A program made the position numbers and the translations under genes. From the NCBI GenBank assembly GCA_937903035.1, contig CALCZP010000002.1:20739-84738 (forward strand): 64,000 nt of DNA. Direction: 5' to 3'. This stretch comes from an uncultured bacterium (GTDB lineage Bacteria; Patescibacteriota; Minisyncoccia; Phycocordibacterales; UBA9973). Shown piece by piece: positions 1 to 12,670 of the stretch; within the stretch, counting starts at the first letter, position 1; each line of letters starts with the position of its first letter. The notes below the pieces were generated by a model, which saw nothing but the letters and a program-made list of their open reading frames with translations, was not told the origin of the DNA and searched no databases.

Positions 1-90
1 GCTCTATCTGCTGGAATACTTTTGATATTACAAGATAAAACAGTAGCCCAAAATCCTGCCACTAGTATATTTATTGCAAGTGAAAAATAA
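1..90 (+). CDS. C-terminal fragment of an upstream gene (hydrophobic tail ...ALSAGILLILQDKTVAQNPATSIFIASEK, stop at 88-90); product unknown
   Basis: Open frame 1 from the window edge to TAA at 88-90; no start codon in the window. Not in the ORF track because it is too short and partial. Confidence 0.25.
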   Translation, partial: ALSAGILLILQDKTVAQNPATSIFIASEK

Positions 91-188
91 ACAAGAATCA
101 TACGATACGAAAGTATATCATTTTACATTAAGACCATTTGGTCTTAATTCGAGAATGTTCGGAATTCAATGAGAGAAGTAGAATACTA

Positions 189-216
189 TTGACAATTTTT
201 GATTATTATTTATAAT
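189..216 (+). promoter_or_regulatory. Sigma70-like promoter (TTGACA, 16 nt, TATAAT) upstream of ORF 240-743, preceded by the palindrome AAGACCATTTGGTCTT (130-145) and the motif GAATGTTCGGAATTC (153-167)
   Basis: Read directly: TTGACA at 189-194 and TATAAT at 211-216, about 25 nt before the ATG at 240. Near-consensus hexamers are common in AT-rich DNA, so confidence is moderate. Confidence 0.4.
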
Positions 217-239
217 AATCAAAACCTTAAAAACTATAT

Positions 240-743
240 ATGAAACCAGCAACACTAGTTTTCTCAGACAGCGGCAAGTCCGTTCATATCAAATTTGCAA
301 ACGACAAAGAGTCTTTCGAATTTGAAAGCAAGGAAGAAGCACTGTTCGCCATATGCGATTGCTTTAATAAGGAAAAGATAACTGCAACTGAAAAGGATGC
401 TTTTGTGAAAGAAATTATTCTCTCAGAAACTCTTCCGGATCATAGGATAAAAATTTCCTTAGTACCCCTTATTCTTCTGGCAGCCTTTTTGGGTGCCATG
501 GATGCTGAAGAAAAAATCATTGATCCGCAGGTAAAGATGTGTGAGTGTGGTATGAAAATGCCACATGCATATATTTACAATAGAGACGATGAAAAAATTG
601 GTCCACCATTTCAATTTAAAATGGACGGCATGGTGTATGTAGAAAGCTTGTTGAAAGAAGAACGTATTACTGAAGGTGATAGTGCAAGGTTAAATACTCT
701 TATCACTTTTTTACAGCTTCCTGAAAGCTCGATGCTCAATTAA
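240..743 (+). CDS. hypothetical protein (167 aa)
   Basis: Long ORF with a promoter-like sequence upstream and a hairpin terminator downstream (779-822). No recognisable domain. Confidence 0.5.
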   Translation: MKPATLVFSDSGKSVHIKFANDKESFEFESKEEALFAICDCFNKEKITATEKDAFVKEIILSETLPDHRIKISLVPLILLAAFLGAMDAEEKIIDPQVKMCECGMKMPHAYIYNRDDEKIGPPFQFKMDGMVYVESLLKEERITEGDSARLNTLITFLQLPESSMLN

Positions 744-778
744 ATCAAAATTCGTTTTAAAAACGCTATTTTGTACAA

Positions 779-822
779 AATAGGCTATTCCTTATTCAAG
801 GAATAGCCTATTACTCTTTTTG
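779..822 (+). terminator. Rho-independent terminator hairpin (AATAGGCTATTCC...GGAATAGCCTATT plus T-run) after ORF 240-743
   Basis: Perfect 13-bp inverted repeat followed by CTCTTTTT. Confidence 0.5.
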
Positions 823-830
823 TTGAAAAA

Positions 831-858
831 TAAAAAAGCTGGATTTCTCCAGCTTTTG
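831..858 (-). terminator. Terminator hairpin (AGCTGGA-TTTC-TCCAGCT) with a T-run on the minus strand, downstream of minus-strand gene 864-1385
   Basis: 7-bp stem. The minus strand reads GCTGGAGAAATCCAGCTTTTTTA. Confidence 0.5.
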
Positions 859-863
859 TTTAA

Positions 864-1385
864 TCATTTTTTGTTTTCAGCTTCATTAATCTTTTCTCTT
901 AACTCAGCCGCTTTTGGATAATCTTCATTTCGTACAGCTTCTTCCAGTTGCTTCCTGAGTATTTCAAGGTTTAATTCAGGGTCGATTTTTTTCCGCTTCT
1001 TCTCATCAATCGGAGCTAAAATCAGACCTTCTTTGAAGACAATGTATTCGTGCTCGCATTCTGCCACCATATTGATATAGGTGGTGACATTTTCAATAAC
1101 GAAATCATTATCTTCGTTTTCTCCTCTTGAGAAATCAAGCTCAAAATCATGCTCGGTCATTTCTGATCCGATACGCTTAACGTACACACATTCAGGAAAG
1201 ACTTCCATGAATTCTTCAACAGTATCTCCTTCGGGGAGGTGAATTATTCCGGTGTCATGATGAAGATAGAGACAATCCTTAATGACGAGGATGTGTTGGT
1301 TTTCGATAAACCCTTCATCACCAATATCCATTTGCGAAAGACGGCACTGGCGATGGCGAACATTTACTTTTCCAATAATGGGCAT
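864..1385 (-). CDS. hypothetical protein with a C-terminal UVR (UvrB/UvrC-type) motif
   Basis: The C-terminus LRKQLEEAVRNEDYPKAAELREKINEAE matches the UVR-domain consensus from UvrB/UvrC. The N-terminal domain is not recognised. Confidence 0.55.
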   Translation of the reverse strand: MPIIGKVNVRHRQCRLSQMDIGDEGFIENQHILVIKDCLYLHHDTGIIHLPEGDTVEEFMEVFPECVYVKRIGSEMTEHDFELDFSRGENEDNDFVIENVTTYINMVAECEHEYIVFKEGLILAPIDEKKRKKIDPELNLEILRKQLEEAVRNEDYPKAAELREKINEAENKK

Positions 1386-1496
1386 GGTTATGTGGTTTTA
1401 AGGTTATAGAATTTTGTTTAAATCCACATTACCATCTTACTTGACTTTGTCAAAGAAACGGGTAGAGTACGAGGAAACTCATTTAAAACATAAATT

Positions 1497-2717
1497 ATGT
1501 ACAAACTCGAACATGAATTACTCACGAAGTATGCAAAAGTAATGGTTCATTATGCTATTGGAAATGGTAACGGACTTAACAAGGGCGAAACAGTCTTTCT
1601 TATTGGTCAGGAGTGCACAAAGGATCTCTATCTCGAAATTTGCAAAGAAATTTGGCGAAGTGGAGGAAATGTAATCCATCGATACCTTCCTGATGAAGTA
1701 GGACGTTATGGTATAAACCGATCATTGCTTGAGATAGGTACCGATGAACAACTTACATTCTTTCCAACTCCGTATTGGCAAGGTGTTACTGATGTTATGG
1801 ATCATATTCTATTTATCATTGCTGATCCAGATATGCATGCATTGGATGGAATACTTGCTGAAAAAATTTGCAAAATGGAGGAATCAAAGGCTCCCTTTAT
1901 GGAAATGCGTGAAAAGAAAGAATCCGTAGGCAAACTCTCTTGGACACTCTGTTTGTATGGAACCGAGTCAATGGCCAAAGAAGCAGGTATAAATCTGCAA
2001 GAGTATTGGGAACAGATCATCAATGCTTGTTATCTCCAAGACGAAGATCCGGTTGCAACTTGGCGTAATACTAAGGAAGAGATTGTTAAAATCAAGTCTT
2101 GGCTTTCTGAACTCAAGATTGAAAGGGTGCACGTTGAAGCAGATGGAATTGATCTTTGGATCAAGGTTGGAGCAGATCGTAAATGGCTTGGAGCATCGGG
2201 GCACAATATACCAAGCTTCGAAGTCTTTACATCACCGGACTGGAGAGGAACATCTGGAAAGATTTTTTTCAATCAGCCGTTATACTATCAGTGTAAAAGG
2301 ATTTCTGGCATTCAGCTTGAGTTCAAAAATGGTGTTATTACTCATGCTTCAGCAGCAGAAAATGAAGATACGCTGTTACAGATGATTGCGATTGAAAACG
2401 CCAACAAAATAGGAGAGTTTTCTTTGACTGACAGACGTCATTCCAGGATTACCAAACCGATGGCAACAACTCTGTTTGATGAAAATATGGGTGGAAAATA
2501 TGGCAATACGCATATTGCACTTGGTATGTCCTATAAAGAAGCTTTTGTCGGTGATATTGGGGGCACTACAGATGAAGGATGGGAAGCGAGAGGTTTCAAT
2601 CTTTGTCATAAGGTTCACACCGACATCATCAGTACTGCAAACAGAAAAGTAACAGCTACTTTGGCAAACGGTGAGTCGTTAGTAATTTATGAAAACGGAC
2701 AATTTACAGTTGTCTAA
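1497..2717 (+). CDS. M29-family aminopeptidase (AmpS/PepS-like)
   Basis: 406 aa. The N-terminal pattern LLxKYAKVMVxYAIGxxxGLNKGETVFL and the overall length resemble thermophilic-aminopeptidase (M29) proteins. Family assigned from memory of the sequence pattern. Confidence 0.6.
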   Translation: MYKLEHELLTKYAKVMVHYAIGNGNGLNKGETVFLIGQECTKDLYLEICKEIWRSGGNVIHRYLPDEVGRYGINRSLLEIGTDEQLTFFPTPYWQGVTDVMDHILFIIADPDMHALDGILAEKICKMEESKAPFMEMREKKESVGKLSWTLCLYGTESMAKEAGINLQEYWEQIINACYLQDEDPVATWRNTKEEIVKIKSWLSELKIERVHVEADGIDLWIKVGADRKWLGASGHNIPSFEVFTSPDWRGTSGKIFFNQPLYYQCKRISGIQLEFKNGVITHASAAENEDTLLQMIAIENANKIGEFSLTDRRHSRITKPMATTLFDENMGGKYGNTHIALGMSYKEAFVGDIGGTTDEGWEARGFNLCHKVHTDIISTANRKVTATLANGESLVIYENGQFTVV

Positions 2718-2726
2718 TTTATTCAA

Positions 2727-2747
2727 GGAGCTTCGGCTCCTTTTTCT
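2727..2747 (+). terminator. Terminator hairpin AGGAGC-TTCG-GCTCCT plus TTTTTC after the aminopeptidase gene
   Basis: 6-bp GC-rich stem, UUCG tetraloop and a T-run, 10 nt after the stop at 2717. Confidence 0.55.
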
Positions 2748-2828
2748 ATTTATTCCGAACTCTTGAGGATGTTTGGAATTATTTGACAAAATAAAAAATA
2801 TTGTGTAATTTTGGTAAAAATAATCATT

Positions 2829-3091
2829 ATGAAACAAACTCTTGAAATGAAAACCTTATTTAAGAAAGGTGATAAAGTTAAAATCACCAGACTTGAAAAA
2901 ATGGTTACACTGACGAAGGTGAGGTATTCTCAGCTTCCTCGAAAGAAGTTGGTATTAAGATAACTCAGTCTCCAACTCAAGGTGCGGTAGGTATGGAGGT
3001 AAGGTTTGGGATGAGAGATGGGGTATGGAAATACCTGAATGGAAATACGTATAGCAAGAGAGATTCTGGGTATTCCATTGCAAAAATTTAA
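2829..3091 (+). pseudogene. Small gene interrupted by a frameshift in an A6 run (2896-2901). If the run is restored to A7 it gives an ~86-aa protein beginning MKQTLEMKTLFKKGDKVKITRLEKNGYTDEGEVFSASSKEVGIKITQSPTQGAVGMEV..., which may be a DUF2945 / hypervirulence-associated TUDOR-like small protein
   Basis: Frame A runs ATG 2829 to TAA at 2946. The -1 frame continues from 2903 to TAA at 3089-3091 with a coherent sequence. The junction is exactly at GAAAAAATGG. A promoter-like TTGACA sits at 2785 and a hairpin terminator at 3102-3131. Confidence 0.35.
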
Positions 3092-3101
3092 TAAAAACTA
3101 G

Positions 3102-3131
3102 AGATGCTTTAGTAATAACGCATCTTTTTTA
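3102..3131 (+). terminator. Terminator hairpin AGATGC...GCATCT plus TTTTTT
   Basis: 6-bp stem with a 12-nt loop, followed by T6. Confidence 0.4.
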
Positions 3132-3163
3132 TTTTGTCTAAATTAGATTCAAACATCGTTCAA

Positions 3164-3195
3164 GCATTCCGAACATTAGAGGATGTTCGGAATGC
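3164..3195. promoter_or_regulatory. Perfect 13-bp inverted repeat GCATTCCGAACAT-N6-ATGTTCGGAATGC, directly upstream of a promoter-like TTGACT(3203)...TAGACT(3224) for ORF 3247
   Basis: Read directly. The same half-site ATGTTCGGAAT recurs at 153-167, 2755-2782 (imperfect) and 3545-3569. Confidence 0.45.
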
Positions 3196-3246
3196 TCTGA
3201 TATTGACTCCTATTTAAAACCGACTAGACTGGAGAAAACATTTGCC

Positions 3247-3624
3247 ATGAGTAAGCTATACAAATGCAAAAAGAAAGTATTGGATTTTATACAAGCTGCT
3301 GGTGATACTGGGGCTACAGAAAGTCAGCTAGTATGTGTTATTAATGAATTTAATAGGGAAGAATGTATGTTTGAATACGATATCAATCCTCTAACTCCAG
3401 CTTCAATTATTGAGCAGCTTGTATTCAAGTTCGAAGACCTTCTTTTTGAAAAGAGATTTATTCCAAAGAAAGAACTTTTCTTCTTTTGGATTTACAAATC
3501 TTCGCCACCTCCAGGAAAGGTGGTTTTTCTTTTGTCTCTACTAGCTCGGAATGTTGAAGGATGTTCGAATGAGTTTAGGGTAATAAAAAACCCATCACGA
3601 ATGATGGGTTGTTGTAAGAATTGA
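3247..3624 (+). CDS. hypothetical protein (125 aa). The N-terminal region could be a winged-helix DNA-binding fold, so it may be the regulator for the adjacent palindromes (speculative)
   Basis: ORF with a promoter-like sequence and an operator-like inverted repeat upstream. Its 3' end runs through a hairpin at 3589-3615, so the true stop may be earlier. Confidence 0.4.
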   Translation: MSKLYKCKKKVLDFIQAAGDTGATESQLVCVINEFNREECMFEYDINPLTPASIIEQLVFKFEDLLFEKRFIPKKELFFFWIYKSSPPPGKVVFLLSLLARNVEGCSNEFRVIKNPSRMMGCCKN

Positions 3625-3631
3625 ATGAATC

Positions 3632-4033
3632 TTACTCAACAGTGATTACTCCTTTACGAGTTTTTGTTGAATAATAAGCCTTAATTGTAACAATTTCTTT
3701 TCTATAAAATCCAAGAAGGTAGTCTTCCTCAGCGAAACATTTGAAGTCCTCAAAACTGAGTTTTTTAGCATACACTCCTGGTTCTATTTTCTCCGGCTTT
3801 TTAACAAAAAATGATTCCGAAACACATTCTTTGTTAGTGGAAAAAGTTAGGTTCCAGGATTGACCACCGCCATCTTCCGCCTCAATAGAGTTGATGATTG
3901 CAGCAATATACTTTTCATTTTCATTTTTTTCAAAACAAAAAGGAACTAACCTTTTTTCGGCTAAAAGGCGTAAACCGTCAAACAATTCCTCTCTTGAGGG
4001 ACCGTTTGTAATCTGAATTGTTTTTTGTAACAT
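3632..4033 (-). CDS. hypothetical protein (133 aa)
   Basis: Clean ORF convergent with 3247-3624. No recognisable motif. Confidence 0.45.
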   Translation of the reverse strand: MLQKTIQITNGPSREELFDGLRLLAEKRLVPFCFEKNENEKYIAAIINSIEAEDGGGQSWNLTFSTNKECVSESFFVKKPEKIEPGVYAKKLSFEDFKCFAEEDYLLGFYRKEIVTIKAYYSTKTRKGVITVE

Positions 4034-4203
4034 CGTACGATGAATTTAAAAGAACTCTTTATGCGTTTTACAGAGGATAAAGAATACTCTGGAGCTATGA
4101 AGCAATCTTTCCGTACAGAAAGAACTATCTGCATCATAGCACAAAATAATTGACAAGTCAAGTATGATATGCTATCATACAGTTAAATCAAACTTAAAAA
4201 ATT

Positions 4204-4581
4204 ATGAACTATAAGCTTTTCTACACATGCCTTATAACATTCTTTGGCATGATGTTTTGGTTACTGTTTCAGCAGGGCTCTATGGACTTTATTGCTGTCA
4301 GAATAATCATCGCCTTTATCTCAGCAATCCTTCTTTTCTTTTCTGTAACATGGAATGAAAAAGGTGGTTGGAAAAAGGCAGTGGTAGTACTTCTGGTGAT
4401 AATAGGTTTCGGTTCAATCGCAAACTTTGCTTTTGGCTGGGGTATCGCACATTATCCAGGAATTACACTACTGACAATGCCAGGGATACTTGTTCTTGGA
4501 CTTTTATACATAAAGTTTGTGGAACCAAAAATTCTGAACAAAAAGCCAAAACAGAAAATGCGTCCTGAGATTTATAATTAA
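4204..4581 (+). CDS. small integral membrane protein (3-4 TM helices)
   Basis: Hydrophobic throughout. The upstream TTGACA (4150-4155) and extended -10 TGCTATCAT overlap the palindrome GTATGATA-TGC-TATCATAC (4162-4180). Confidence 0.5.
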   Translation: MNYKLFYTCLITFFGMMFWLLFQQGSMDFIAVRIIIAFISAILLFFSVTWNEKGGWKKAVVVLLVIIGFGSIANFAFGWGIAHYPGITLLTMPGILVLGLLYIKFVEPKILNKKPKQKMRPEIYN

Positions 4582-4769
4582 ACTAATTTGTCCTTTTACC
4601 GAAATGCCTCACTTAATAGTGGGGCTTTTTTCTTTCCTCCAGACCTTCACAACATACACAACGTTCACGTGCTCGCTTGGAGGAACGCATTTCGAACTTT
4701 TGACTGGGCTGAATTATACAGCGATACTAAGTTCCACTTAGAAAATACTAACAGGTTGCTTGCACTAGC

Positions 4770-6617
4770 TTAAAGAGTTACCTGTCTGACAATCTCTCTA
4801 ATTTCAATACTTTCTGGGTTTGCATCGTCTGCAAGATATGTCGTGAGTTGGTTATTGCAGAAATCGATTGTTTCAGTAAGACCCTTGGTGATCCCTAGAT
4901 AATGTTCTAGATCACCATTTTTAAGAATATACATTTTGTTTGCGTACTCTCCGTCAATTCTAGCCTCCCAATCTGTATTTCTCGCTTTGAATGCAGTTAC
5001 TTCAGCAGGTGCTTTTACGCTCTGTCCTTTGTCTGCAGGATAGAAAAGATCGATAGCAAAATCCAGATCATTGATGCCATAGACTGATAAACCAAAGCTC
5101 GTAAAAAGAGCACTCCATTCTTGATGATTACCTTTGCCGTTAGTTTCAAGCACAGCAATCTCTTGATCAAGTTCTGGGTACTTTTCTTGAATGATAGATT
5201 TGAAAAAGTATCGATCTGTATCGCCCTCAACTAAGAGAACTTTTTTGGCAAAGAATGCGTAAGTTGATCTGGTATTGTCGAGTATCTTGATGAGTATTCT
5301 TTGCTCAGTTGTCAGTGTAGGTGCTTTGATGGCGGTGTATCCATCAGATGTTAGGGAGAAACGCTTTACTTGATTGATAGTCGATGAATTGATCAGTGCT
5401 TCTGAATGAGTTACCAAAATATATTGACAACTTTGTTCTTTGTTCAGTTCTCGAATAACCTGCAGATATTCATTTTGAAACTGGTAATGAAGATGTATCT
5501 CTGGCTCATCAATAATAACTACGCCACCTTTTAGATCACCACGCCCATAAGACTCGAAGACGAGGTGAATAATTGCTTTTTGTCCCGCACTCAAACTGTT
5601 TATGTCATTGAGCTTTTTGTTTCGGCGCAAATCAAGAAACTCAAATGCATATTGCCAAGTTCTGAGGTCTATCAACCTGATCTTGCATTCAAGATTGATG
5701 AGTTTCAGTTTCTTATTTATCGAAATAATAAAGGGTAGTTCATTAGCACTCTTTTCGCATTCTGCATCGTCCATTTTTCCTGAAATGAGACTAAAATGTT
5801 TTTCCGCTACTCGAAGCCTGACAAGACCAAAGATGCTTGGCTCTCCTTGGTCATTTGCATTTAAGCTTTTTGAGAAATCACGAGTTTTGATTTGTTGCAT
5901 TTGCTGTGATGGAAGCTGATCTCGTAGTGAGATAGATGTATCAAAAGCATGATAGTTTCGATAACTTGAAATTAAAGTGAAAGACTCATACAACGGGGCA
6001 ATCGGTGCTGTTGGGTGTTCTATGTTGTATATCTCGATAAGCTCTTTATAGAAATTGTAGTCAGAAAGATATTCAAACCCAAAATCGTGAGCACCTTGTT
6101 GAAATGCGACTGAAAAAGACTGGTTAGTTTTGTTCAAGGTAATATCAAGTGTGTAGTTTTCTTGATGTGCCGTCAGTCCTGTAAGACCTCGTACTGTATA
6201 TGAAAGAAGTGGGTTAAGAGAAGCCTGATTGTCTCTGATGTGTTGTAGGTTCTGCAGATCAATAGCATCGAGCTTTATTTCAAGTCTAATTTTCTGATCT
6301 TTGTCCTCAGTGTTCCAGTTTGGTTCCAAGCGAAAACCGCTGTATGTCTGGGCATTCACAGGTGTAAGGATTTGCTTTCTCTCGTCCGCAGTTACAGTAC
6401 TTTTCCGTGAATACAACTCTTGATTTACATTGAACTGCTTATATAGCACTCTCTTGAAAAGAAAGTTTACAACCTCCAATGCAGTAGATTTTCCTGCACC
6501 ATTCTCTCCAATAATGATATTTAGACCATCCTCAAAGACGATCTGCTCAGCGTTAGCTACATCGTCATGGTGCTTAAAACTTAGGATGTTTGATACTCGT
6601 AATGACTTGATCTTCAT
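4770..6617 (-). CDS. OLD-family (overcoming lysogenization defect) ATP-dependent endonuclease, class-1-like: N-terminal ABC/AAA ATPase plus C-terminal TOPRIM
   Basis: Walker A GENGAGKST near the N-terminus. Walker B/D-loop LVIIDEPEIHLH. C-terminal TOPRIM signature VLLVEGDTDRYFF, with DxD (GINDLDF) about 45 residues later. No adjacent UvrD-like helicase, so it is not a Gabija pair. Confidence 0.75.
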   Translation of the reverse strand: MKIKSLRVSNILSFKHHDDVANAEQIVFEDGLNIIIGENGAGKSTALEVVNFLFKRVLYKQFNVNQELYSRKSTVTADERKQILTPVNAQTYSGFRLEPNWNTEDKDQKIRLEIKLDAIDLQNLQHIRDNQASLNPLLSYTVRGLTGLTAHQENYTLDITLNKTNQSFSVAFQQGAHDFGFEYLSDYNFYKELIEIYNIEHPTAPIAPLYESFTLISSYRNYHAFDTSISLRDQLPSQQMQQIKTRDFSKSLNANDQGEPSIFGLVRLRVAEKHFSLISGKMDDAECEKSANELPFIISINKKLKLINLECKIRLIDLRTWQYAFEFLDLRRNKKLNDINSLSAGQKAIIHLVFESYGRGDLKGGVVIIDEPEIHLHYQFQNEYLQVIRELNKEQSCQYILVTHSEALINSSTINQVKRFSLTSDGYTAIKAPTLTTEQRILIKILDNTRSTYAFFAKKVLLVEGDTDRYFFKSIIQEKYPELDQEIAVLETNGKGNHQEWSALFTSFGLSVYGINDLDFAIDLFYPADKGQSVKAPAEVTAFKARNTDWEARIDGEYANKMYILKNGDLEHYLGITKGLTETIDFCNNQLTTYLADDANPESIEIREIVRQVTL

Positions 6618-6661
6618 GGTGTAATACTAGCATTTTTTGCCCTGTTTAAGTATTTCAAAAA

Positions 6662-7600
6662 ATGTTAAAATACACTTTACTTATGAGCAATGTAACAAAG
6701 CCCAAAAAAAGGACTTCAAAGAGCCTTAAAAACAAGAAGAAGTTTACTTTTATAGACTTATTTGCAGGGATCGGTGGCTTTCATTACGCTTTCCATAACG
6801 TAGGTGCAGAATGCGTCTTTTCTTCAGAATGGGACGAACACGCAAGAAAAACCTATCAGACCAACTTTGAAAAAATAAGTCCTGATCTATTTAAGTCTGG
6901 TAATTTTGTTGGAGATATTACAAAAGTAGATAAGAAAGCTATTCCTGATTTTGATATTTTGACGGGAGGATTTCCGTGCCAGCCATTTAGTCAGGCAGGG
7001 TTCAAAAAAGGTTTTAGTGATACGAGAGGCACACTTTTTTATGATATTGCGGACATAATCAAAGTTAAAAAACCTAAAGCTTTTTTCCTAGAAAATGTTA
7101 GAGGGCTTCTCGCTCACGATAACGGTAAAACTTTTGAAACGATCAAGAGTGTTTTGACTGAAGAGTTAGGATACTCACTATTTTTTAATATCGTTAAAGC
7201 TTCTGATCATGGCTTGCCTCAAAATCGCCCTCGACTATTTATGATCGGTTTTAGAAATAAGAAAATACCTTTTTCTTTCCCTGAAAAAAGACCCCTGGAG
7301 TTCACCATGTCAGATGTATTTGGTGAGCCTGTAAATCGTGATATTGGCTTTACTTTGCGTGTTGGTGGCAAAGGCTCTGTAATTACTGATAGACGAAATT
7401 GGGATAGTTATATGGTAAATGGAAAGCCTAAAAGATTATCCTCAAAGGAGGGTAAGAAAATGCAGGGGTTTCCAGATGACTTTGTTTTCCCAGTCTCTGA
7501 AAGTCAGGCAATGAAGCAATTAGGAAATAGCGTAGCCATATACGCCATACAAGATTACGCACAAAAGATAATTGAAGCACTTGAAAATCATTATGAATAA
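6662..7600 (+). CDS. DNA (cytosine-5)-methyltransferase, the modification subunit of a type II R-M system
   Basis: m5C-MTase motifs: I FIDLFAGIGGF, IV GGFPCQPFS, VI FLENVRGL, VIII QNRPRLFMIGF, X GNSVAI. The true start may be the internal Met at 6683. Confidence 0.9.
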   Translation: MLKYTLLMSNVTKPKKRTSKSLKNKKKFTFIDLFAGIGGFHYAFHNVGAECVFSSEWDEHARKTYQTNFEKISPDLFKSGNFVGDITKVDKKAIPDFDILTGGFPCQPFSQAGFKKGFSDTRGTLFYDIADIIKVKKPKAFFLENVRGLLAHDNGKTFETIKSVLTEELGYSLFFNIVKASDHGLPQNRPRLFMIGFRNKKIPFSFPEKRPLEFTMSDVFGEPVNRDIGFTLRVGGKGSVITDRRNWDSYMVNGKPKRLSSKEGKKMQGFPDDFVFPVSESQAMKQLGNSVAIYAIQDYAQKIIEALENHYE

Positions 7601-8675
7601 TCAAAAACAAACAACAGGAAATACAGGAGAATGGAGTGAGTTATACGCTCTCGCTTTTCTCTTGGCTAATGGTGGTGCATACGGTGCTGACAAAGATCAA
7701 AACAGAAAAGAGGATTTGTTCTACAAGGTTCTGAAGATAATCTTTGCTGAAAAAGTGGGTAAAGAAAAGATGACTTACGAAATCAATGATGGAGTTATCG
7801 ATGTCTTTGCAGGTTTGAATAAAATCGCCTCAATAAAAACACAAAAGATACAAAGCATTCTTAAAAAGATGTTCGAGACTTTATCTGCAAAAAATGTAGG
7901 GCGAGCCTTTCCACTAGAAGCAGGTTCAGAGATGATGCAACTCTTACAGAAACAAGTCATTAAGGCTTCAAGCTCAGATAAGAAAGACCTTGATCTAGTG
8001 GTTCTTGATCTGAAAACAAACCAGCCAAGTCCAGAGATTGGCTTCAGTATAAAATCCCAACTCGGAAGCCCCTCAACTCTAGTAAATGCTTCAAGTGCAA
8101 CAAACTTTACTTACGAGATACTTGATAAGGATATGAAAGTCCCTACGCAATTACCAAAATTGCACGAGAAAAATGTTAAAGATAACATCAATCTTTTGAT
8201 GGCTTCTGGATATAACATTGTTTTTCGTAAAGTAGACAGTGAGAAGTTTGAACACAACCTTTCTTTGATCGATAGCAATCTGGCGACATATATCGCAAAA
8301 ATACTTTTGTCATATTACGCACGAGAAGCAAGTAATTTATCGGGTCTAGTTTCTCATAACTTTCCTGCATCTGATCAACAGAGCAAACAGCCAACTCATA
8401 AGATAAAAGAGTTCCTGAGTATTATGGCTTTGGGAATGATGCCTAATACTGATTGGAATGGAATACTAACAAGTCTTGGAGGTTTTCTGTTGGTTAAAAA
8501 AGATGGTGATGTATTGTGCTATTACCTCTACAACCTCGAAGATTTCCAAGAATATCTGCTAAATAATACAAAGCTCGATACACCAAGCACCACTCGATAC
8601 GGAATTGGAAAAATCATAGAGGAAGACAATCGCTTTTATATAAAGCTCAATCTACAGGTTCGATTTACTAAATAA
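7594..8675 (+). CDS. Type II restriction endonuclease, HpaII-family-like
   Basis: The ATG at 7594 overlaps the MTase stop (ATGAATAA), which is typical R-M coupling. The N-terminus GNTGEWSELYALAFLLANGGAYGADKD matches my recollection of the conserved HpaII-family N-terminal block (GEWSELY...). ORF-track start 7572 trimmed to 7594. Confidence 0.6.
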
Positions 8676-8794
8676 ATTACACAAAAGATCGCTCTACACA
8701 TCTGTCTTTTTGAGGTGTTTTTCGATATAATGCAATTACAGCTGAATAAAGCCGACCTAACCCCTACAGCCTTAAAACTTTAGGATATGGTCGC

Positions 8795-8951
8795 AAACCG
8801 CAAGCAACGTAAAAACCCGATCATTAGGGCGTTGCTTGCGTTACATGGGGAAACCTGTGTATGAGTCTTCGGACTCACCTAGTGGTCGGATTTTTGCGTC
8901 TTACCCTCCTAGTTTTAAAAATAAAGCAAAACAAATCGCAAGCAACGATTA
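8795..8951 (+). promoter_or_regulatory. Structured leader in front of ORF 8951. CGCAAGCAACG occurs at 8799-8809 and again at 8937-8947 (the second copy abuts the ATG). A single complementary CGTTGCTTGCG lies at 8830-8840. A GAGTC-UUCG-GACTC hairpin lies at 8864-8878
   Basis: Read directly. Two identical segments compete for one complement, and the second copy covers the ribosome-binding region. Confidence 0.35.
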
Positions 8952-9379
8952 TGAATACAAACAATATCTCTTCCTGGAGTACAGGAAGAAAGTTAGTCGT
9001 TTTTTTATTAGTTCCCATCTTCATTGCAGTAGTCGTAGGTATGGCAAGCAGTCCAACTCCTGCTCCTGTCCAAAAGACGGCAGAAGAGATCGCATACCAG
9101 AAGAAGCATGACTTTGCTTCATTGGCGAAGATGAATGTCGAGATGATGCTCAAAGCTCCGTCTACAGCAAAGTTCAATACTTCTCCGACCATCAAGGAAG
9201 AGAATGGTATCTACTCGATCAACTCATGGGTTGATAGCGAGAACAGCTATGGAGCGATGATCAGAAGCCAGTGGTCAGCCAAGGCTCACTACATCGGAGG
9301 AGACTCTGAAGATGAGATCGGAACAGGCGCAAACTGGATCATTGACGAGTTCATTTTTGACGGGAAAAAGGTCAAATAG
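8951..9379 (+). CDS. membrane-anchored / secreted hypothetical protein (142 aa from the internal Met)
   Basis: N-terminal TM segment LVVFLLVPIFIAVVVGM. ORF-track start 8861 trimmed to the Met that follows the structured leader. Confidence 0.45.
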   Translation: MNTNNISSWSTGRKLVVFLLVPIFIAVVVGMASSPTPAPVQKTAEEIAYQKKHDFASLAKMNVEMMLKAPSTAKFNTSPTIKEENGIYSINSWVDSENSYGAMIRSQWSAKAHYIGGDSEDEIGTGANWIIDEFIFDGKKVK

Positions 9380-9390
9380 CAAATGATGCA

Positions 9391-9594
9391 TTAACAGTGG
9401 AAAAAACAGTGGTGAGGGGGTCAAAAACACGCAAAAAAACACGCAAAACGGTATCTGATCTTTTTGGACAATAACAGTGTGAAAAACAGTGTGGGGAGGA
9501 TCAAAAACAGTGAAAAAAACAGTGAAAAGTACCTCGAAAAGCATCACAAGAAAAAGTACATTAACAGCGATAAAAACAGCGAGAGAGGGTCAAA
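9391..9594. repeat. Iteron-like composite direct-repeat array of three ~37-bp units spaced ~80-88 bp apart. Each unit is a doublet of AACAGTG/AACAGCG separated by A5-6, followed by a G-rich TGAGGGGGTCAAAAAC-type tail. Interleaved doublets ACGCAAAA x2 and AGTGAAAA x2
   Basis: Units at 9391-9428, 9471-9508 and 9559-9594, read directly. They lie immediately upstream of the winged-helix gene 9630-10262. Confidence 0.6.
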
Positions 9595-9629
9595 TTGCGG
9601 TGTACTTTGTCGACAAAAAATACTAAAGT

Positions 9630-10262
9630 ATGTCTATGACAAAGTTGGCATCTAATGCAAACCAAAAAGTAAAGCTAATCCTAGAAAAAATCGTTGAAGA
9701 ATACGATTTAGGAAATGGTAGTGGCGACATCACACTAGGAAGTCATCATTTCCTAAAAGATACAGGTATAGATACTAATCAATTCCTAAGGATACTGAGA
9801 AATCTTGAACAGAACCATATTCTTGAAAGCTTTAAAGTGCACGCAAACGCTAGAACTGATGATGGCGATCTGGTCTGTTTCTTGAAGCCATTAAACCACT
9901 TTAAATCAAGAGCTGAAGATTATATTGAAAGACTTGAAGTTCCAGTAGAGTCTGCTCCTGGTTTCTTCTTGTATCTTGATAAAAGCAATTTTTGGCATAC
10001 TGATAAAAAGAAATACTCTTACCCGATGAATAACGCACCAGGACGTTTAGCGATCTTAAAATACCTAGCAGAAAACAAGGGAGTTCAACCTACTAAAGAA
10101 ATAGCTTCTTTTTTGGGTAGAACAACTAAAAGGATTATGAATGATGTGGGAAAAATAAGAGCAGAAATCAAAGAACATCTAAAGCTCCCAGATGTTATAG
10201 AAAACAGCAAGCCAGATGGTTACTACATCAACCCCAAGTATACAGTTATAGTTACTGACTAA
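9630..10262 (+). CDS. hypothetical DNA-binding protein (putative winged-helix). Candidate replication initiator or regulator acting on the upstream repeats
   Basis: 210-aa ORF. The C-terminal segment RLAILKYLAENKGVQPTKEIASFLGRTTKRIMNDVGKI is HTH/winged-helix-like. Its position next to the iterons is only suggestive. Confidence 0.45.
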   Translation: MSMTKLASNANQKVKLILEKIVEEYDLGNGSGDITLGSHHFLKDTGIDTNQFLRILRNLEQNHILESFKVHANARTDDGDLVCFLKPLNHFKSRAEDYIERLEVPVESAPGFFLYLDKSNFWHTDKKKYSYPMNNAPGRLAILKYLAENKGVQPTKEIASFLGRTTKRIMNDVGKIRAEIKEHLKLPDVIENSKPDGYYINPKYTVIVTD

Positions 10263-10382
10263 GTACTCTCGCTCTCCTGTTAATATCTAGGATCAATGTC
10301 TTATCTTAAAAAGGTTTTTTAAGATGTGAAGAGTACTAGAAGCGTATATACAGAGTACATATCTGACACATAAAATCATTAT

Positions 10383-10565
10383 GTGATCAGCGATGCAACA
10401 ATTAAGAAGTTCCAACAAGTAGTCGAGAGTGAGTACCATGTCATTCTTGATGAAAAGGAAGCGAGAGAAGTTCTCACTAACTGGGTTGGTTATTTTGACT
10501 TGCTTGCAAAGATCGATCACAGAATACAATCAGAAAGTCAGAGGTCGTTAGTGAGTCCTCTTTAA
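10383..10565 (+). CDS. small hypothetical protein (60 aa)
   Basis: ORF in a 530-nt gap. Sequence looks protein-like but has no RBS or motif support. Confidence 0.25.
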   Translation: MISDATIKKFQQVVESEYHVILDEKEAREVLTNWVGYFDLLAKIDHRIQSESQRSLVSPL

Positions 10566-10574
10566 AAAACCGAC

Positions 10575-10660
10575 TACTAACTTGTATTTGCATGTAGATA
10601 ATAGCGCCTGACACACTGAGTGAGACTTCTCAGCAGGCGACCTCATCTGCATACAAGTCA
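10575..10660. other. Nested imperfect inverted repeats (CTTGTATTTGCATGTAGAT ... ATCTGCATACAAG enclosing CGCCTG...CAGGCG). Candidate oriT, att or sRNA-like structured site
   Basis: Read directly. Lies upstream of the RHH-like small gene and the recombinase. Confidence 0.25.
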
Positions 10661-10792
10661 AGCAACTGTATCGAGATGTTTGCTATGAGGGGGTTGAAAC
10701 ATTTTGATAGATTTTTTGAAAAATTACTAATTTAACTATCCCAATCTGTAAAAAACCAATACAGATGAGGGAGGAAAAAGTCTAAACAAAAT

Positions 10793-11023
10793 ATGTCAAC
10801 AAAGAGACAAAAGCTATATAGCAAAGAAGATATTAAGCTTGCACAAGAAGAAAGTAAAAGAGTTGGAAAATACTTTACTCGTAAAACAGCCAAAAGGAAA
10901 ACAATACAGGTTAGGATCGGTGAAAAATGGCATCAAAAGATCAAAGAAGTCGCTGGTGAAGAAAAGATAATGATTTCATTTTTTCTTGATCGAGTTTGTG
11001 AGCACTTCTTTAAGCATTACTAA
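10793..11023 (+). CDS. small basic protein (76 aa), possibly a ribbon-helix-helix DNA-binding protein (MobC-, Arc- or RDF-like)
   Basis: Good SD (AGGGAGG) 8-14 nt upstream. Lys/Arg-rich. The KTIQVRIGEKWHQKIKEVA segment is compatible with an RHH beta-strand plus helix. It sits directly 5' of the recombinase. Confidence 0.45.
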   Translation: MSTKRQKLYSKEDIKLAQEESKRVGKYFTRKTAKRKTIQVRIGEKWHQKIKEVAGEEKIMISFFLDRVCEHFFKHY

Positions 11024-11038
11024 TTATTTACTAATCAC

Positions 11039-12610
11039 ATGAATAAACCAACAAAAACAAAAGCCGTTATATATGCCAGAGTTTCTTCTAAAGAGCAGGA
11101 AGAAACTGGCTACTCATTAAACTCACAAGAGGAGCTTCTAAATAATTACTCAACAAGTCGAAACGACTTCAATGTAGTAAAAGTATTTAGGATTTCTGAG
11201 TCTGCGAGTGGGAAAATCCAGCGCACAACCTTTACTGAAATGATTAAGTTTATGGACAAGAATAAAATAAATATCCTTGTCTGTGAGAAAGTCGATCGAC
11301 TCACGAGAAACTTCAAAGATGCATTGATTATCGATGAATGGCTAGATCAGGATGAAAACCGACAGGTGCACTTGGTCAAGGACTCTCTAGTGATGCATAA
11401 GCATTCAAAATCGCAAGAAAAGCTTAACTGGGGTATTAGAATACTCTTCGCAAAAAATTACACAGACAATCTTTCTGAAGAAGTTAAAAAGGGTCAGAAG
11501 CAAAAAATAAAAGAGGGTTGGCTACCAACCACTCCTCCACTTGGTTATAAAACTGTAGGAGAAAAAGGACATAAAATCCATGTGATCGATGAGACTGTTG
11601 CACCCTATATAAAAGAAATGTTTGCCTTGTATGCCACAGGTAATTATTCAACAGTTGCGTTGGGAGAAAAAATGTACAAACAAGGCTTCCGAAGTCGATC
11701 AGGTGTTCAGGTAGTAAAAAGCCAAATACATAAAATACTCTCTGAGCCTTTTTATTACGGAAAACTTGTATGGAATGGAAATCTTTTTGAGGGCAAACAC
11801 GACCCACTTATCTCAAAAGATTTGTTTGATCAGGTTCAGGCAAAAATGTCTCGTGGTGCAATACCGTATCACAATAAAGGGCTTACTGAGTTAAGAGGTA
11901 AAATCTTCTGCGGTTCTTGTAATAAAACCGTTACTTGGGAATTACAAAAAGGCACTATGTATGGTGGTTGTAAGCAGTGTAAGGCACAGCTTGGCAAAGA
12001 TAAGAAGTATATCCACCAGGAAGACCTAGAAAGCGATCTACTGGCTCATATTGCCTCTGTAGCTCCTCTTAGTGAGAAAGTTATAGATGTGCTTAATCAG
12101 GCTTTAAAAGAGAGCCACAGTGAGGAAATAGGGCTACATGAGACTCAAACCAGGAACATCAACAATCAACTAGAAAGAATAAGGCAGAGAATGAAAAACA
12201 TGTACCTGGACAAGATTGATGAGAGAATAAGCGGAGACTTCTACGATGAGCAGGTCGCACAGTTTGCAGAAGAAAAAGAAGCATTACTCCACTCTCTGAA
12301 AAAACTCGAAGCAGATAATACTGAATACTACCGAGTTGGATTTATGATCCATGAGATTGCACTGAGAGCGAGAGAGATTTATCTCAATGAAAACGCATCG
12401 ATTGAAGAGCGCAGAATGCTTCTTGCTTATGCATTCTCGAACATCACTGTTTTAGCAGGAAATATAAAGGCAGAATACACAAAACCTTTTGCTTTTCTTG
12501 CAGAATGGATGCCAAGAGTAAATGAAGTTCTCGAACTGGAAAAAACCCTTGGTACAAAAGGAAAAGAGAGCACTTTCGTGCCCTCTCATCCTATCGTGCT
12601 CCCCCGGTAG
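11039..12610 (+). CDS. large serine recombinase (resolvase/invertase N-terminal catalytic domain, recombinase domain, zinc ribbon and coiled coil)
   Basis: N-terminal VIYARVSSKEQ with catalytic Ser, and DRLTRN. Zinc ribbon CGSCNK...CKQCK. 523 aa. The stop codon overlaps the tRNA-Asn 3' end. Confidence 0.9.
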   Translation: MNKPTKTKAVIYARVSSKEQEETGYSLNSQEELLNNYSTSRNDFNVVKVFRISESASGKIQRTTFTEMIKFMDKNKINILVCEKVDRLTRNFKDALIIDEWLDQDENRQVHLVKDSLVMHKHSKSQEKLNWGIRILFAKNYTDNLSEEVKKGQKQKIKEGWLPTTPPLGYKTVGEKGHKIHVIDETVAPYIKEMFALYATGNYSTVALGEKMYKQGFRSRSGVQVVKSQIHKILSEPFYYGKLVWNGNLFEGKHDPLISKDLFDQVQAKMSRGAIPYHNKGLTELRGKIFCGSCNKTVTWELQKGTMYGGCKQCKAQLGKDKKYIHQEDLESDLLAHIASVAPLSEKVIDVLNQALKESHSEEIGLHETQTRNINNQLERIRQRMKNMYLDKIDERISGDFYDEQVAQFAEEKEALLHSLKKLEADNTEYYRVGFMIHEIALRAREIYLNENASIEERRMLLAYAFSNITVLAGNIKAEYTKPFAFLAEWMPRVNEVLELEKTLGTKGKESTFVPSHPIVLPR

Positions 12611-12670
12611 GATTCGAACCTACGACCAATCGCTTAACAGGCGACTGCTCTACCGCTGAGCTACAGGGGA
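12599..12670 (-). tRNA. tRNA-Asn (anticodon GUU)
   Basis: Minus-strand sequence TCCCCTGTAGCTCAGCGGTAGAGCAGTCGCCTGTTAAGCGATTGGTCGTAGGTTCGAATCCTACCGGGGAG folds as a canonical cloverleaf (7-bp acceptor, GCTC/GAGC D-stem, anticodon loop CTGTTAA, T-loop TTCGAAT). It begins UCCCCUG like enterobacterial tRNA-Asn. No CCA is encoded. Confidence 0.85.

Follow-up and report, generated by a model that had tools for sequence, protein, structure and literature searches.

A heterogeneous array of direct-repeat doublets upstream of the gene for a predicted receiver-less OmpR/PhoB-like regulator in a serine-integrase element of a Patescibacteriota bacterium

We analyzed a 64,000-nucleotide stretch of DNA (hereafter the window; contig CALCZP010000002.1, assembly GCA_937903035.1, positions 20,739 to 84,738) from an uncultured Patescibacteriota bacterium of the lineage Minisyncoccia, Phycocordibacterales, UBA9973. 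It carries an integrative element of the large-serine-recombinase type, within which five doublets of short direct repeats, contained in ~200 bp, lie directly before the gene for a winged-helix (wHTH) DNA-binding protein. The array (9391-9594) is a genuine set of repeated sites, very probably bound by protein, upstream of that gene. In kind it is an OmpR/PhoB-style operator array and not a new category. Our preferred account, held tentatively and with confidence a little short of even, is that the array may be the cis-regulatory docking region of a promoter, P1, for the wHTH protein encoded downstream, and may feed control of the integrase operon through a second promoter, P2. Coordinates are those of the window; array features, promoters and genes lie on the plus strand unless stated otherwise, and related loci are cited by our own handles (L001 and so on) where they must be told apart.

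The anatomy of the array is established. Each doublet is built from a 7-8-bp word, a 4-bp A-tract and the same word repeated. Doublet D1 (9393-9412) consists of AACAGTGG, a 4-nt A-tract and AACAGTGG again, at a 12-bp period, and is followed directly by a G-rich tail, TGAGGGGGTCAAA (9413-9425), for which the consensus among relatives is RRGRGGKTCAAA. D2 (9423-9448; AACACGCAAAA twice) is a perfect 12-bp tandem with 2.2 copies of AAAAACACGCAA. A 24-bp spacer, CGGTATCTGATCTTTTTGGACAAT (9449-9472), near-invariant in L001, L127 and L007, leads to D3 (9473-9493; AACAGTGTG twice), which runs directly into a second tail, GGGAGGATCAAA (9494-9505), and D4 (9503-9528; AACAGTGAAAA twice) forms another perfect 12-bp tandem with 2.2 copies of AAAAACAGTGAA. 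Between D4 and the promoter-proximal doublet D5 (9563-9582; AACAGCGA twice) lies a spacer of 34 bp (9529-9562); D5 and its tail, GAGAGGGTCAAA (9583-9594), together make up the proximal composite at 9563-9594. Periodicities in this array are of two kinds, 12 bp inside a doublet and ~30-34 bp between adjacent doublets. Tandem Repeats Finder (TRF) detected both perfect tandem doublets, D2 and D4, and a repeat search recovered a higher-order unit of 60 nt (9389-9448 against 9469-9528, 77% identity), in which D1, its tail and D2 are matched by D3, its tail and D4, the 24-bp spacer separating the two copies. On re-reading of the sequence, and with independent repeat finders concurring, the repeats proved to be real and as the original prediction for this DNA had described them. 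The composite units that it listed are likewise present, but their starts lie 80 and 90 bp apart instead of at intervals of 80-88 bp. A phasing at about eight helical turns, which it had also proposed, is not a feature of the array because unit spacing is not kept in relatives, where it runs from ~19 to 65 bp.

We then compared the array with the rest of the window. The pattern AACASYG-N5-AACASYG had four matches in the 64 kb, all inside 9393-9581, where 0.41 were expected and no shuffle reached four. Exact period-12 runs of 8 nt or longer numbered five within 9380-9629; in 2000 dinucleotide shuffles their mean was 0.022, and no shuffle had more than 1. Among 250-nt windows across the 64 kb, none clear of the array held more than one exact period-12 run, and outside the array periods 11 and 12 were not enriched relative to periods 8-30. 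Since the window has no such excess outside the array, a genome-wide mutational bias towards 11/12-bp duplications was ruled out. A coding function was also ruled out: all six frames contain stops, relatives differ by a 70-bp indel, some of their doublets have an 11-bp period, and the local open reading frames (ORFs) have no homologues. Rfam gave no match inside the array, and a structured RNA was rejected as well, given a fold z-score of just -1.9 that stems from one inverted repeat kept in the closest relatives alone.

The conservation of the array as a feature of related elements, which the original prediction had made a test of its reading, is equally established. Nine non-redundant arrays (the window, L001/L127, L004, L005, L007, L012, L087, L246 and L247) all occupy the equivalent position, and the wHTH proteins of the relatives are ~36-75% identical to that of the window. 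Arrays are confined to the clade with the P1 motif described below and always lie between the stop codon of the upstream gene and P1, where they are essentially the sole cluster of such doublets in each related locus. The smallest, in L005, has 3 doublets, and the largest, in L087, at least 10, which span more than 420 bp. In L011 the gene and promoter are present without an array, L009 retains single decayed words only, and distant relatives in which the C-terminal domain alone is shared lack both array and promoter motif.

Doublets fall into two classes. Those of class A are promoter-proximal, with a 12-bp period (8+4), and carry AACA plus four variable nucleotides followed by a 4-bp A-tract. 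Those of class B, usually distal, have an 11-bp period (7+4), with words such as ACTCGAC, ACTCGGT, AATCGAG or AACCGAA before the 4-bp A-tract. Anchored pattern matching over the nine arrays returned 29 candidate class-A and 23 candidate class-B doublets, a few of which are register overlaps. Constraint on the words shows in an AAC prefix and in YG at fixed positions; the G-rich tails, too, are conserved. In close relatives the half-sites have stayed the same, and substitutions accumulate in the spacers between doublets. The four variable positions are 92% identical within a doublet but 52% identical between doublets of one array. Doubled AACAGTGTG and doubled AACAGTGAAA occur in both the window and L087, whose arrays are otherwise unalignable and whose proteins are 40% identical. 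Mixed intermediates exist as well, L012 pairing AACAATGG with AACAGTGG where L087 has AACAATGG twice and the window AACAGTGG twice. The two halves of a doublet look as if they undergo concerted evolution. Slippage by 12 bp, through loss and re-duplication of units, may produce such halves; selection for identity is the alternative.

The gene downstream of the array (9636-10262, with an upstream in-frame ATG at 9630) encodes a 208-residue protein of ~24 kDa, predicted to contain two winged-helix domains, as expected from its original description as a winged-helix gene. In an AlphaFold2 (AF2) model with a mean predicted local distance difference test score (pLDDT) of 82.5, residues 10-101 form a winged-helix-like N-terminal domain. 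The C-terminal domain (~112-208) comprises an N-terminal beta-sheet, three helices and a C-terminal beta-hairpin wing, which is the fold of an OmpR/PhoB-type (Trans_reg_C) effector DNA-binding domain. Trans_reg_C was also the commonest Pfam match in the protein family, found in 16 of 37 members, all weakly (best E 3e-5). Because of the modeled fold and these family matches, we assign the C-terminal domain as a divergent OmpR/PhoB-type effector domain, predicted to operate without a receiver domain. No receiver domain with a phospho-acceptor Asp was found, as the protein has no Response_reg match and residues 10-101 fold as a winged-helix-like domain. An hhalign comparison with an approximate PhoB sequence gave the expected register, but at an E of only 0.045 and a probability of 1%.

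Searches of Pfam, PHROGs, NCBIfam, PADLOC and PDB sequences with the 208-residue protein returned nothing noteworthy, and a PDB sequence search with the wHTH family profile gave no relevant match. In a set of 5.8 billion proteins clustered at 90% identity, it has just five other cluster relatives. A profile search of 1.84 billion representatives returned 408 proteins. Approximately 25 of these, at E up to 1e-30, are mostly near full length; the remainder match over the C-terminal ~100 residues, fused to many different N-termini, and the long members among them showed no informative Pfam or NCBIfam domain. Genome matches came from Candidatus Saccharibacteria, other lineages of the candidate phyla radiation (CPR), a few unclassified bacterial metagenome-assembled genomes (MAGs) and one Pseudobdellovibrionaceae MAG. 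The family was not found in 2.9 million viral contigs, 50,697 phage records or 72,556 plasmids, so that the similar repeat-plus-gene cassettes that the original prediction had proposed to seek on plasmids or phage did not come to light. A second copy of the regulator that reads other words was ruled out, there being no wHTH paralogue in the window.

Between the array and the gene lies the putative promoter P1 (9601-9629), composed of TGTACT (9601-9606), a 17-nt spacer and TAAAGT (9624-9629). Its geometry is established: TGTACT-17-TA[AG][AT]GT-6-ATG is kept in 9 of 11 loci, the remaining two deviating by 1-3 nt, and the 15-mer TGTACTTTGTCGACA (9601-9615 in the window) shows no change among the 11 loci in which it occurs. 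The -35 hexamer matches 3 of 6 consensus positions, as expected of an activator-dependent promoter. Within the spacer between -35 and -10, a classical position for repressors, sits a 12-bp palindrome, TTTGTCGACAAA (9606-9617), a candidate repressor operator. In the eight related arrays with a complete proximal doublet, this doublet begins 70-76 nt before the start codon, with its second half-site beginning 24-26 nt upstream of the -35. Only 6 nt separate the -10 from the ATG at 9636, and a leaderless mRNA is therefore predicted. The start codon of the wHTH gene is probably this ATG. The in-frame ATG at 9630 is not conserved among relatives, and it is unlikely to be used because residue M3 is the conserved start and because of the P1 geometry. 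DNA-pattern scans with the invariant promoter 14-mer yielded largely chance matches, the real ones being L087 and L127 only. An inverted repeat, GAAAAAGTACA (9550-9560) and TGTACTTTGTC (9601-9611), flanks the proximal doublet and overlaps the -35; it occurs in the window, L001 and L127 only.

The wHTH gene is followed by an AT-rich hairpin with a T-run (10303-10325, plus strand), a probable terminator with equivalents in all relatives, and then by the promoter region P2 (10342-10382). P2 consists of an imperfect doublet, GCGTATATACA/GAGTACATATC (10342-10363), a -10 TAAAAT (10371-10376), 6 nt and a GTG at 10383. It is apparently leaderless like P1, the transcription start sites of both being predicted from this spacing. 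A promoter of this type, with the same -10, 6 nt and start-codon geometry, precedes the downstream operon in every locus. The P2 -35 region holds an 11-bp-period direct-repeat doublet in all family members, array-less ones included; these doublets are clean in relatives, for example GCATATGTAAAGCATATGT in L012 and GCGTATATACGGCGTATAA in L011, and imperfect in the window. The first gene of the operon is a conserved 60-residue ORF (10383-10565), present in 11 loci at 55-98% identity and with no significant match in Pfam, PHROGs or NCBIfam. Next comes a gene for a 76-residue ribbon-helix-helix (RHH, Arc-like) protein (10793-11023), conserved in all relatives, in which the beta-strand KT[IV]Q[VI]R[IV] is kept in all loci, and after it the gene for a large serine recombinase (11039-12610), the integrase. 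P2 also carries an inverted repeat, CACATAA-N5-TTATGTG. The gap from the RHH stop codon to the integrase ATG contains an exact 11-bp-period doublet, TTACTAAT twice (11017-11035), conserved in L001 and L127 only; other relatives have a leaderless-type -10 at this position.

Members of the OmpR/PhoB family typically bind tandem direct repeats in a head-to-tail manner. The doublets have the layout of pho boxes, with two ~7-bp half-sites, a ~4-bp A/T-rich spacer and a period of 10-12 bp (8+4 in the window, 7+4 in relatives). Since this layout is the signature of head-to-tail OmpR/PhoB binding, and since the sole such protein in the element is encoded directly downstream, we read the array as a docking region for that protein, and we infer the identity of the binder, the sign of the regulation and the link to P2 as follows. 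Each doublet would represent one operator for two head-to-tail DNA-binding domains. The likeliest binder would be the OmpR/PhoB-like protein encoded directly downstream, which lacks a receiver and is presumably constitutively active. Once occupied, the proximal doublet, fixed in position and centered near -64, would affect a promoter whose -35 is poor, and a fixed doublet beside a weak -35 fits activator-type control. Distal doublets may add cooperative or buffering binding, and the invariant palindrome between -35 and -10 may be a separate repressor site. The regulator would probably also act on the similar 11-bp doublet at the -35 of P2, which drives the operon of the 60-residue, RHH and integrase genes, and the array could thereby tune the switch that governs integration and excision.

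Known operators provide close parallels. PhoP of M. tuberculosis recognizes 7-bp motifs repeated directly around a spacer of 4 bp (PMC4832192), and its repeats, the pho boxes and the OmpR sites F1-F4 and C1-C3 have in common with our doublets the two direct half-sites, the 11-12-bp period and the A/T-rich 4-bp spacer (PMC4832192). The presence of several two-half-site operators before a weak -35 and a binding domain of the same fold are shared as well. However, the 208-residue protein has a second winged-helix-like domain in place of a receiver and falls below the Pfam threshold for Trans_reg_C, the words differ between doublets while the halves are near-identical, arrays reach at least 10 doublets, and they belong to the control module of a mobile element in CPR bacteria. 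In Chlamydia trachomatis, the atypical OmpR/PhoB member ChxR, which is constitutively active and independent of phosphorylation, recognizes several tandem direct-repeat sites in the promoter of its own gene (PMC3960148). Unlike the wHTH protein, ChxR keeps a degenerate receiver domain for dimerization and is chromosomal, and its sites share one motif.

Several observations weigh against the docking of the wHTH protein on the array. The protein of the window gave no match to PF00486 (Trans_reg_C) at E<=1 and thus did not reach the gathering threshold. Moreover, the window and L001 are 90-100% identical at the nucleotide level over the backbone, including the array, P1 and the RHH and integrase genes, but only 57-73% identical across 9660-10400, which covers the body of the presumed binder's gene, the terminator and the region upstream of P2. 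The breakpoints of the replaced segment lie just inside the 5' end of the wHTH gene and near 10400, and the recognition helices of the two alleles differ (TTKRIMND in the window, KEQNVRTE in L001). We therefore conclude that the regulator was swapped as a cassette with the P2 operator region and without the array, so that the array has not co-varied with its presumed binder. Among the few loci available, covariation of the recognition helix with the proximal or P2 words followed no clear pattern. The array words (AAC plus four variable nucleotides) are also unlike the P2 words (GCNTAY). Given the difference between 92% identity within and 52% between doublets, a single degenerate specificity is insufficient and an extra assumption is needed, for example homogenization by 12-bp slippage. 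Finally, the 10 or more doublets of L087, spread over 440 bp, are many for simple autoregulation. It is mainly because of the cassette exchange that our confidence is no higher, as the exchange leaves room for binding by the RHH or 60-residue protein or for an effect of the A-tracts.

The first of these possibilities is that the doublets are operators for the 76-residue RHH protein, for the 60-residue protein or for the conserved N-terminal part of the wHTH protein, the products of P2 controlling P1 by feedback. Binding to arrays of short repeated boxes is known from RHH proteins, ParG, omega, CopG and ParR among them, and here the array and P1 are co-conserved with the RHH and 60-residue genes, at 90-100% identity, while the wHTH allele is swapped; the invariance of the RHH beta-strand points the same way. 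Known RHH arrays (the ParG-parH tetramer boxes, the omega heptads, ParR-parC) resemble the present one in that many short degenerate phased boxes precede a promoter and that the element encodes an RHH protein. However, here the boxes form strict pairs at 11-12 bp, and not contiguous runs of 7-8 bp or 11 bp, no partition NTPase is present, and the RHH gene lies 1.2 kb from the array instead of next to it. Both proteins are equally conserved in the array-less loci L011, L250 and L013, and an invariant RHH surface suits the invariant palindrome more than the variable words. We consider this explanation unlikely.

The original prediction had been that the array is a replication origin or a centromere-like partition site. 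Read as an origin, the array would be of iteron type and serve the excised circle, and the two-winged-helix protein would be a Rep-like initiator autoregulated via the palindrome. The layout does recall an ori-rep cassette, with direct repeats in an A-rich region directly before the gene of a DNA-binding protein and a palindrome in its promoter, as at the iteron origins served by WH1-WH2 Rep proteins (pPS10 RepA, F RepE, R6K Pi). The two winged-helix-like domains are also in keeping, and small RepA proteins are comparable in size to the ~24 kDa of the present one. However, the protein had no Rep family match in Pfam, NCBIfam or PHROGs and no sequence or top-ranking structural similarity to Rep, no recognized Rep initiator (Rep_3, RepA, RepE or Pi type) is encoded adjacently, and the DNA-binding domain is, by its modeled fold, of the OmpR/PhoB transcription-factor type. 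The doublets are heterogeneous (0.52 identity at variable positions between doublets) and irregularly spaced, whereas iterons are uniform 17-22-mers. The nearest DnaA boxes, sought with up to one mismatch to the standard consensus TTATCCACA, which was assumed valid for CPR bacteria, lie at 7436 and 10593, with none in 9300-9700 or closer than ~900 bp, and the sequence shows no distinct AT-rich block of the kind that serves as an unwinding element. The array, from 0 to at least 10 doublets in size, is dispensable in relatives, as L011 and L009 illustrate, and only integrated copies are known, with no plasmid, phage or viral-contig relatives. An origin thus appears distinctly unlikely. If it were one, such organisms would gain a candidate vector backbone in the cassette; we know of no plasmid tools for Saccharibacteria or other CPR bacteria.

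It is also conceivable, if improbable, that the array has no specific binder and that its phased A-tracts act through intrinsic curvature as an UP-element-like booster of P1, the words being passengers kept identical by slippage. A-tracts recur at offsets of ~12, 20 and 32-33 bp in each 60-nt unit, the top strand is rich in purine and A (AT skew 0.20), and arrays are dispensable and variable in length. The words are constrained, however, and the same ones recur in the otherwise unalignable arrays of the window and L087. The G-rich tails are conserved too, and a 12-bp period does not fit the helical repeat.

Very doubtful is a further reading in which the doublets form a panel of distinct "addresses", each word-pair read by another allele of the wHTH cassette or by a mechanism that requires the two words, of whatever sequence, to be identical. 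In its simple form it fails, as the array words match the P2 operator words of no allele examined. If it held, co-resident or incoming elements might sense and regulate one another through a shared array, which would amount to a cross-immunity or incompatibility device for CPR integrative elements.

Pfam and/or PHROGs scans covered the named ORFs of 3632-12610; for 6662-8675 Pfam alone was used, and three ORFs were run against PADLOC in addition. Among these, no ParA, ParM or TubZ NTPase, terminase, helicase or primase was found, the sole ATPase being an OLD/GajA-like ATPase-TOPRIM defense protein. A centromere-like partition site, or a pac site read by a protein of a helper phage or element, is accordingly the least probable explanation and a very remote one: parC/parH and pac sites are arrays of short direct repeats, their organization before the gene of a small DNA-binding protein is similar, and the element encodes an RHH protein, but neither a partition NTPase nor a terminase accompanies it, the wHTH family is missing from the viral, phage and plasmid collections given above, and array-less related elements exist.

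The placement of the array in an integrated element, as originally proposed, was borne out. The integrase matches PF00239 (Resolvase), PF07508 (Recombinase) and PF13408, the last (Zn_ribbon_recom) at 21.9 bits, under the curated cut-off of 25.3 bits. The 3' end of its gene overlaps the 3' end of a tRNA-Asn gene (12598-12670, minus strand), which marks the right junction, and the GC content is ~37% from position 1 to ~12,600 and ~46% to the right. These domains and a junction at a conserved target gene identify a large-serine-recombinase integrative element. The probable left end (attL side) is a tRNA-like fragment at 4671-4770, GCTCGCTTGGAGGAACGCATTTCGAAC, conserved in five other elements with differing left flanks. 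The fragment lacks an anticodon arm and is preceded in five related loci by a locus-specific hairpin; in the left flank of the window itself, a terminator-like hairpin ends ~40 nt before it. Taken as the left end, it gives an element of ~7.9 kb. A GCTC core is common to this fragment and the tRNA-Asn 3' end at the right junction (12590-12625), and the attP arm may therefore mimic the tRNA target. From left to right, the element carries a minus-strand OLD/GajA-like ATPase-TOPRIM gene, an HpaII-type methylase and endonuclease, a LOOT RNA, a small membrane-protein gene, the array, the wHTH gene with its hairpin terminator, the 60-residue ORF, the RHH gene and the integrase gene. All copies of the wHTH gene with enough flank stand next to an integrase gene, and a tRNA gene follows where the flank extends that far. 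Arm-type, Xis-type or res-like accessory sites were ruled out as an explanation of the array, since the enzyme belongs to the large serine integrases and the right and left junctions are ~3 kb and ~4.7 kb away from the array, respectively.

The LOOT RNA (Rfam RF03000; 8754-8877, plus strand) scored 74 bits against a gathering threshold of 46.4 and lies upstream of the membrane-protein gene that precedes the array. At eight related loci it scored 74-87.5 bits (L001 4921-5044, L004 4528-4650, L005 3268-3387, L011 6932-7061, L012 8991-9110, L127 5763-5886, L246 4859-4990 and L247 4582-4702). It was thus present in 9 of 9 elements with enough upstream DNA, on the same strand and upstream of the gene or genes before the wHTH module, and so appears to belong to the backbone of this family of serine-integrase elements in Saccharibacteria and other CPR bacteria. 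LOOT is an orphan motif in Rfam, and in Weinberg 2017 the word occurs only in the reference list, as an author surname. This orphan structured RNA can now be placed in a defined genetic context.

To our knowledge, almost nothing is known of how mobile elements are regulated in Saccharibacteria and other CPR bacteria, and the searchable literature yielded no account of this family of elements, of its regulator or of its array. The locus presents itself as a compact control module with two apparently leaderless promoters, a cassette-exchanged, receiver-less OmpR/PhoB-like regulator, an RHH protein and a tRNA-Asn-targeting serine integrase. Its unusual features are the predicted receiver-less regulator with two winged helices, doublets that are heterogeneous but internally identical, the cassette exchange, the leaderless two-promoter module and the constant association with LOOT RNA. 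The array also offers what looks like a clear example of operator halves evolving in concert while operators diverge, and may be useful for studying the birth and turnover of binding sites.

Cargo varies between otherwise similar backbones. In the window, positions 4770-8675 hold defense genes, namely the OLD/GajA-like ATPase-TOPRIM gene, without an adjacent helicase, and the HpaII-type restriction-modification pair. In L247 (1-1958) an OLD gene stands beside one for a UvrD-type helicase, a Gabija-like arrangement, and the cargo of L004 includes HigB and other genes. To the left of the inferred element end, positions 1-4669 of the window have a low GC content (34-39%) and ORFs without family assignment; this region may be a second island or a remnant at the same tRNA locus.

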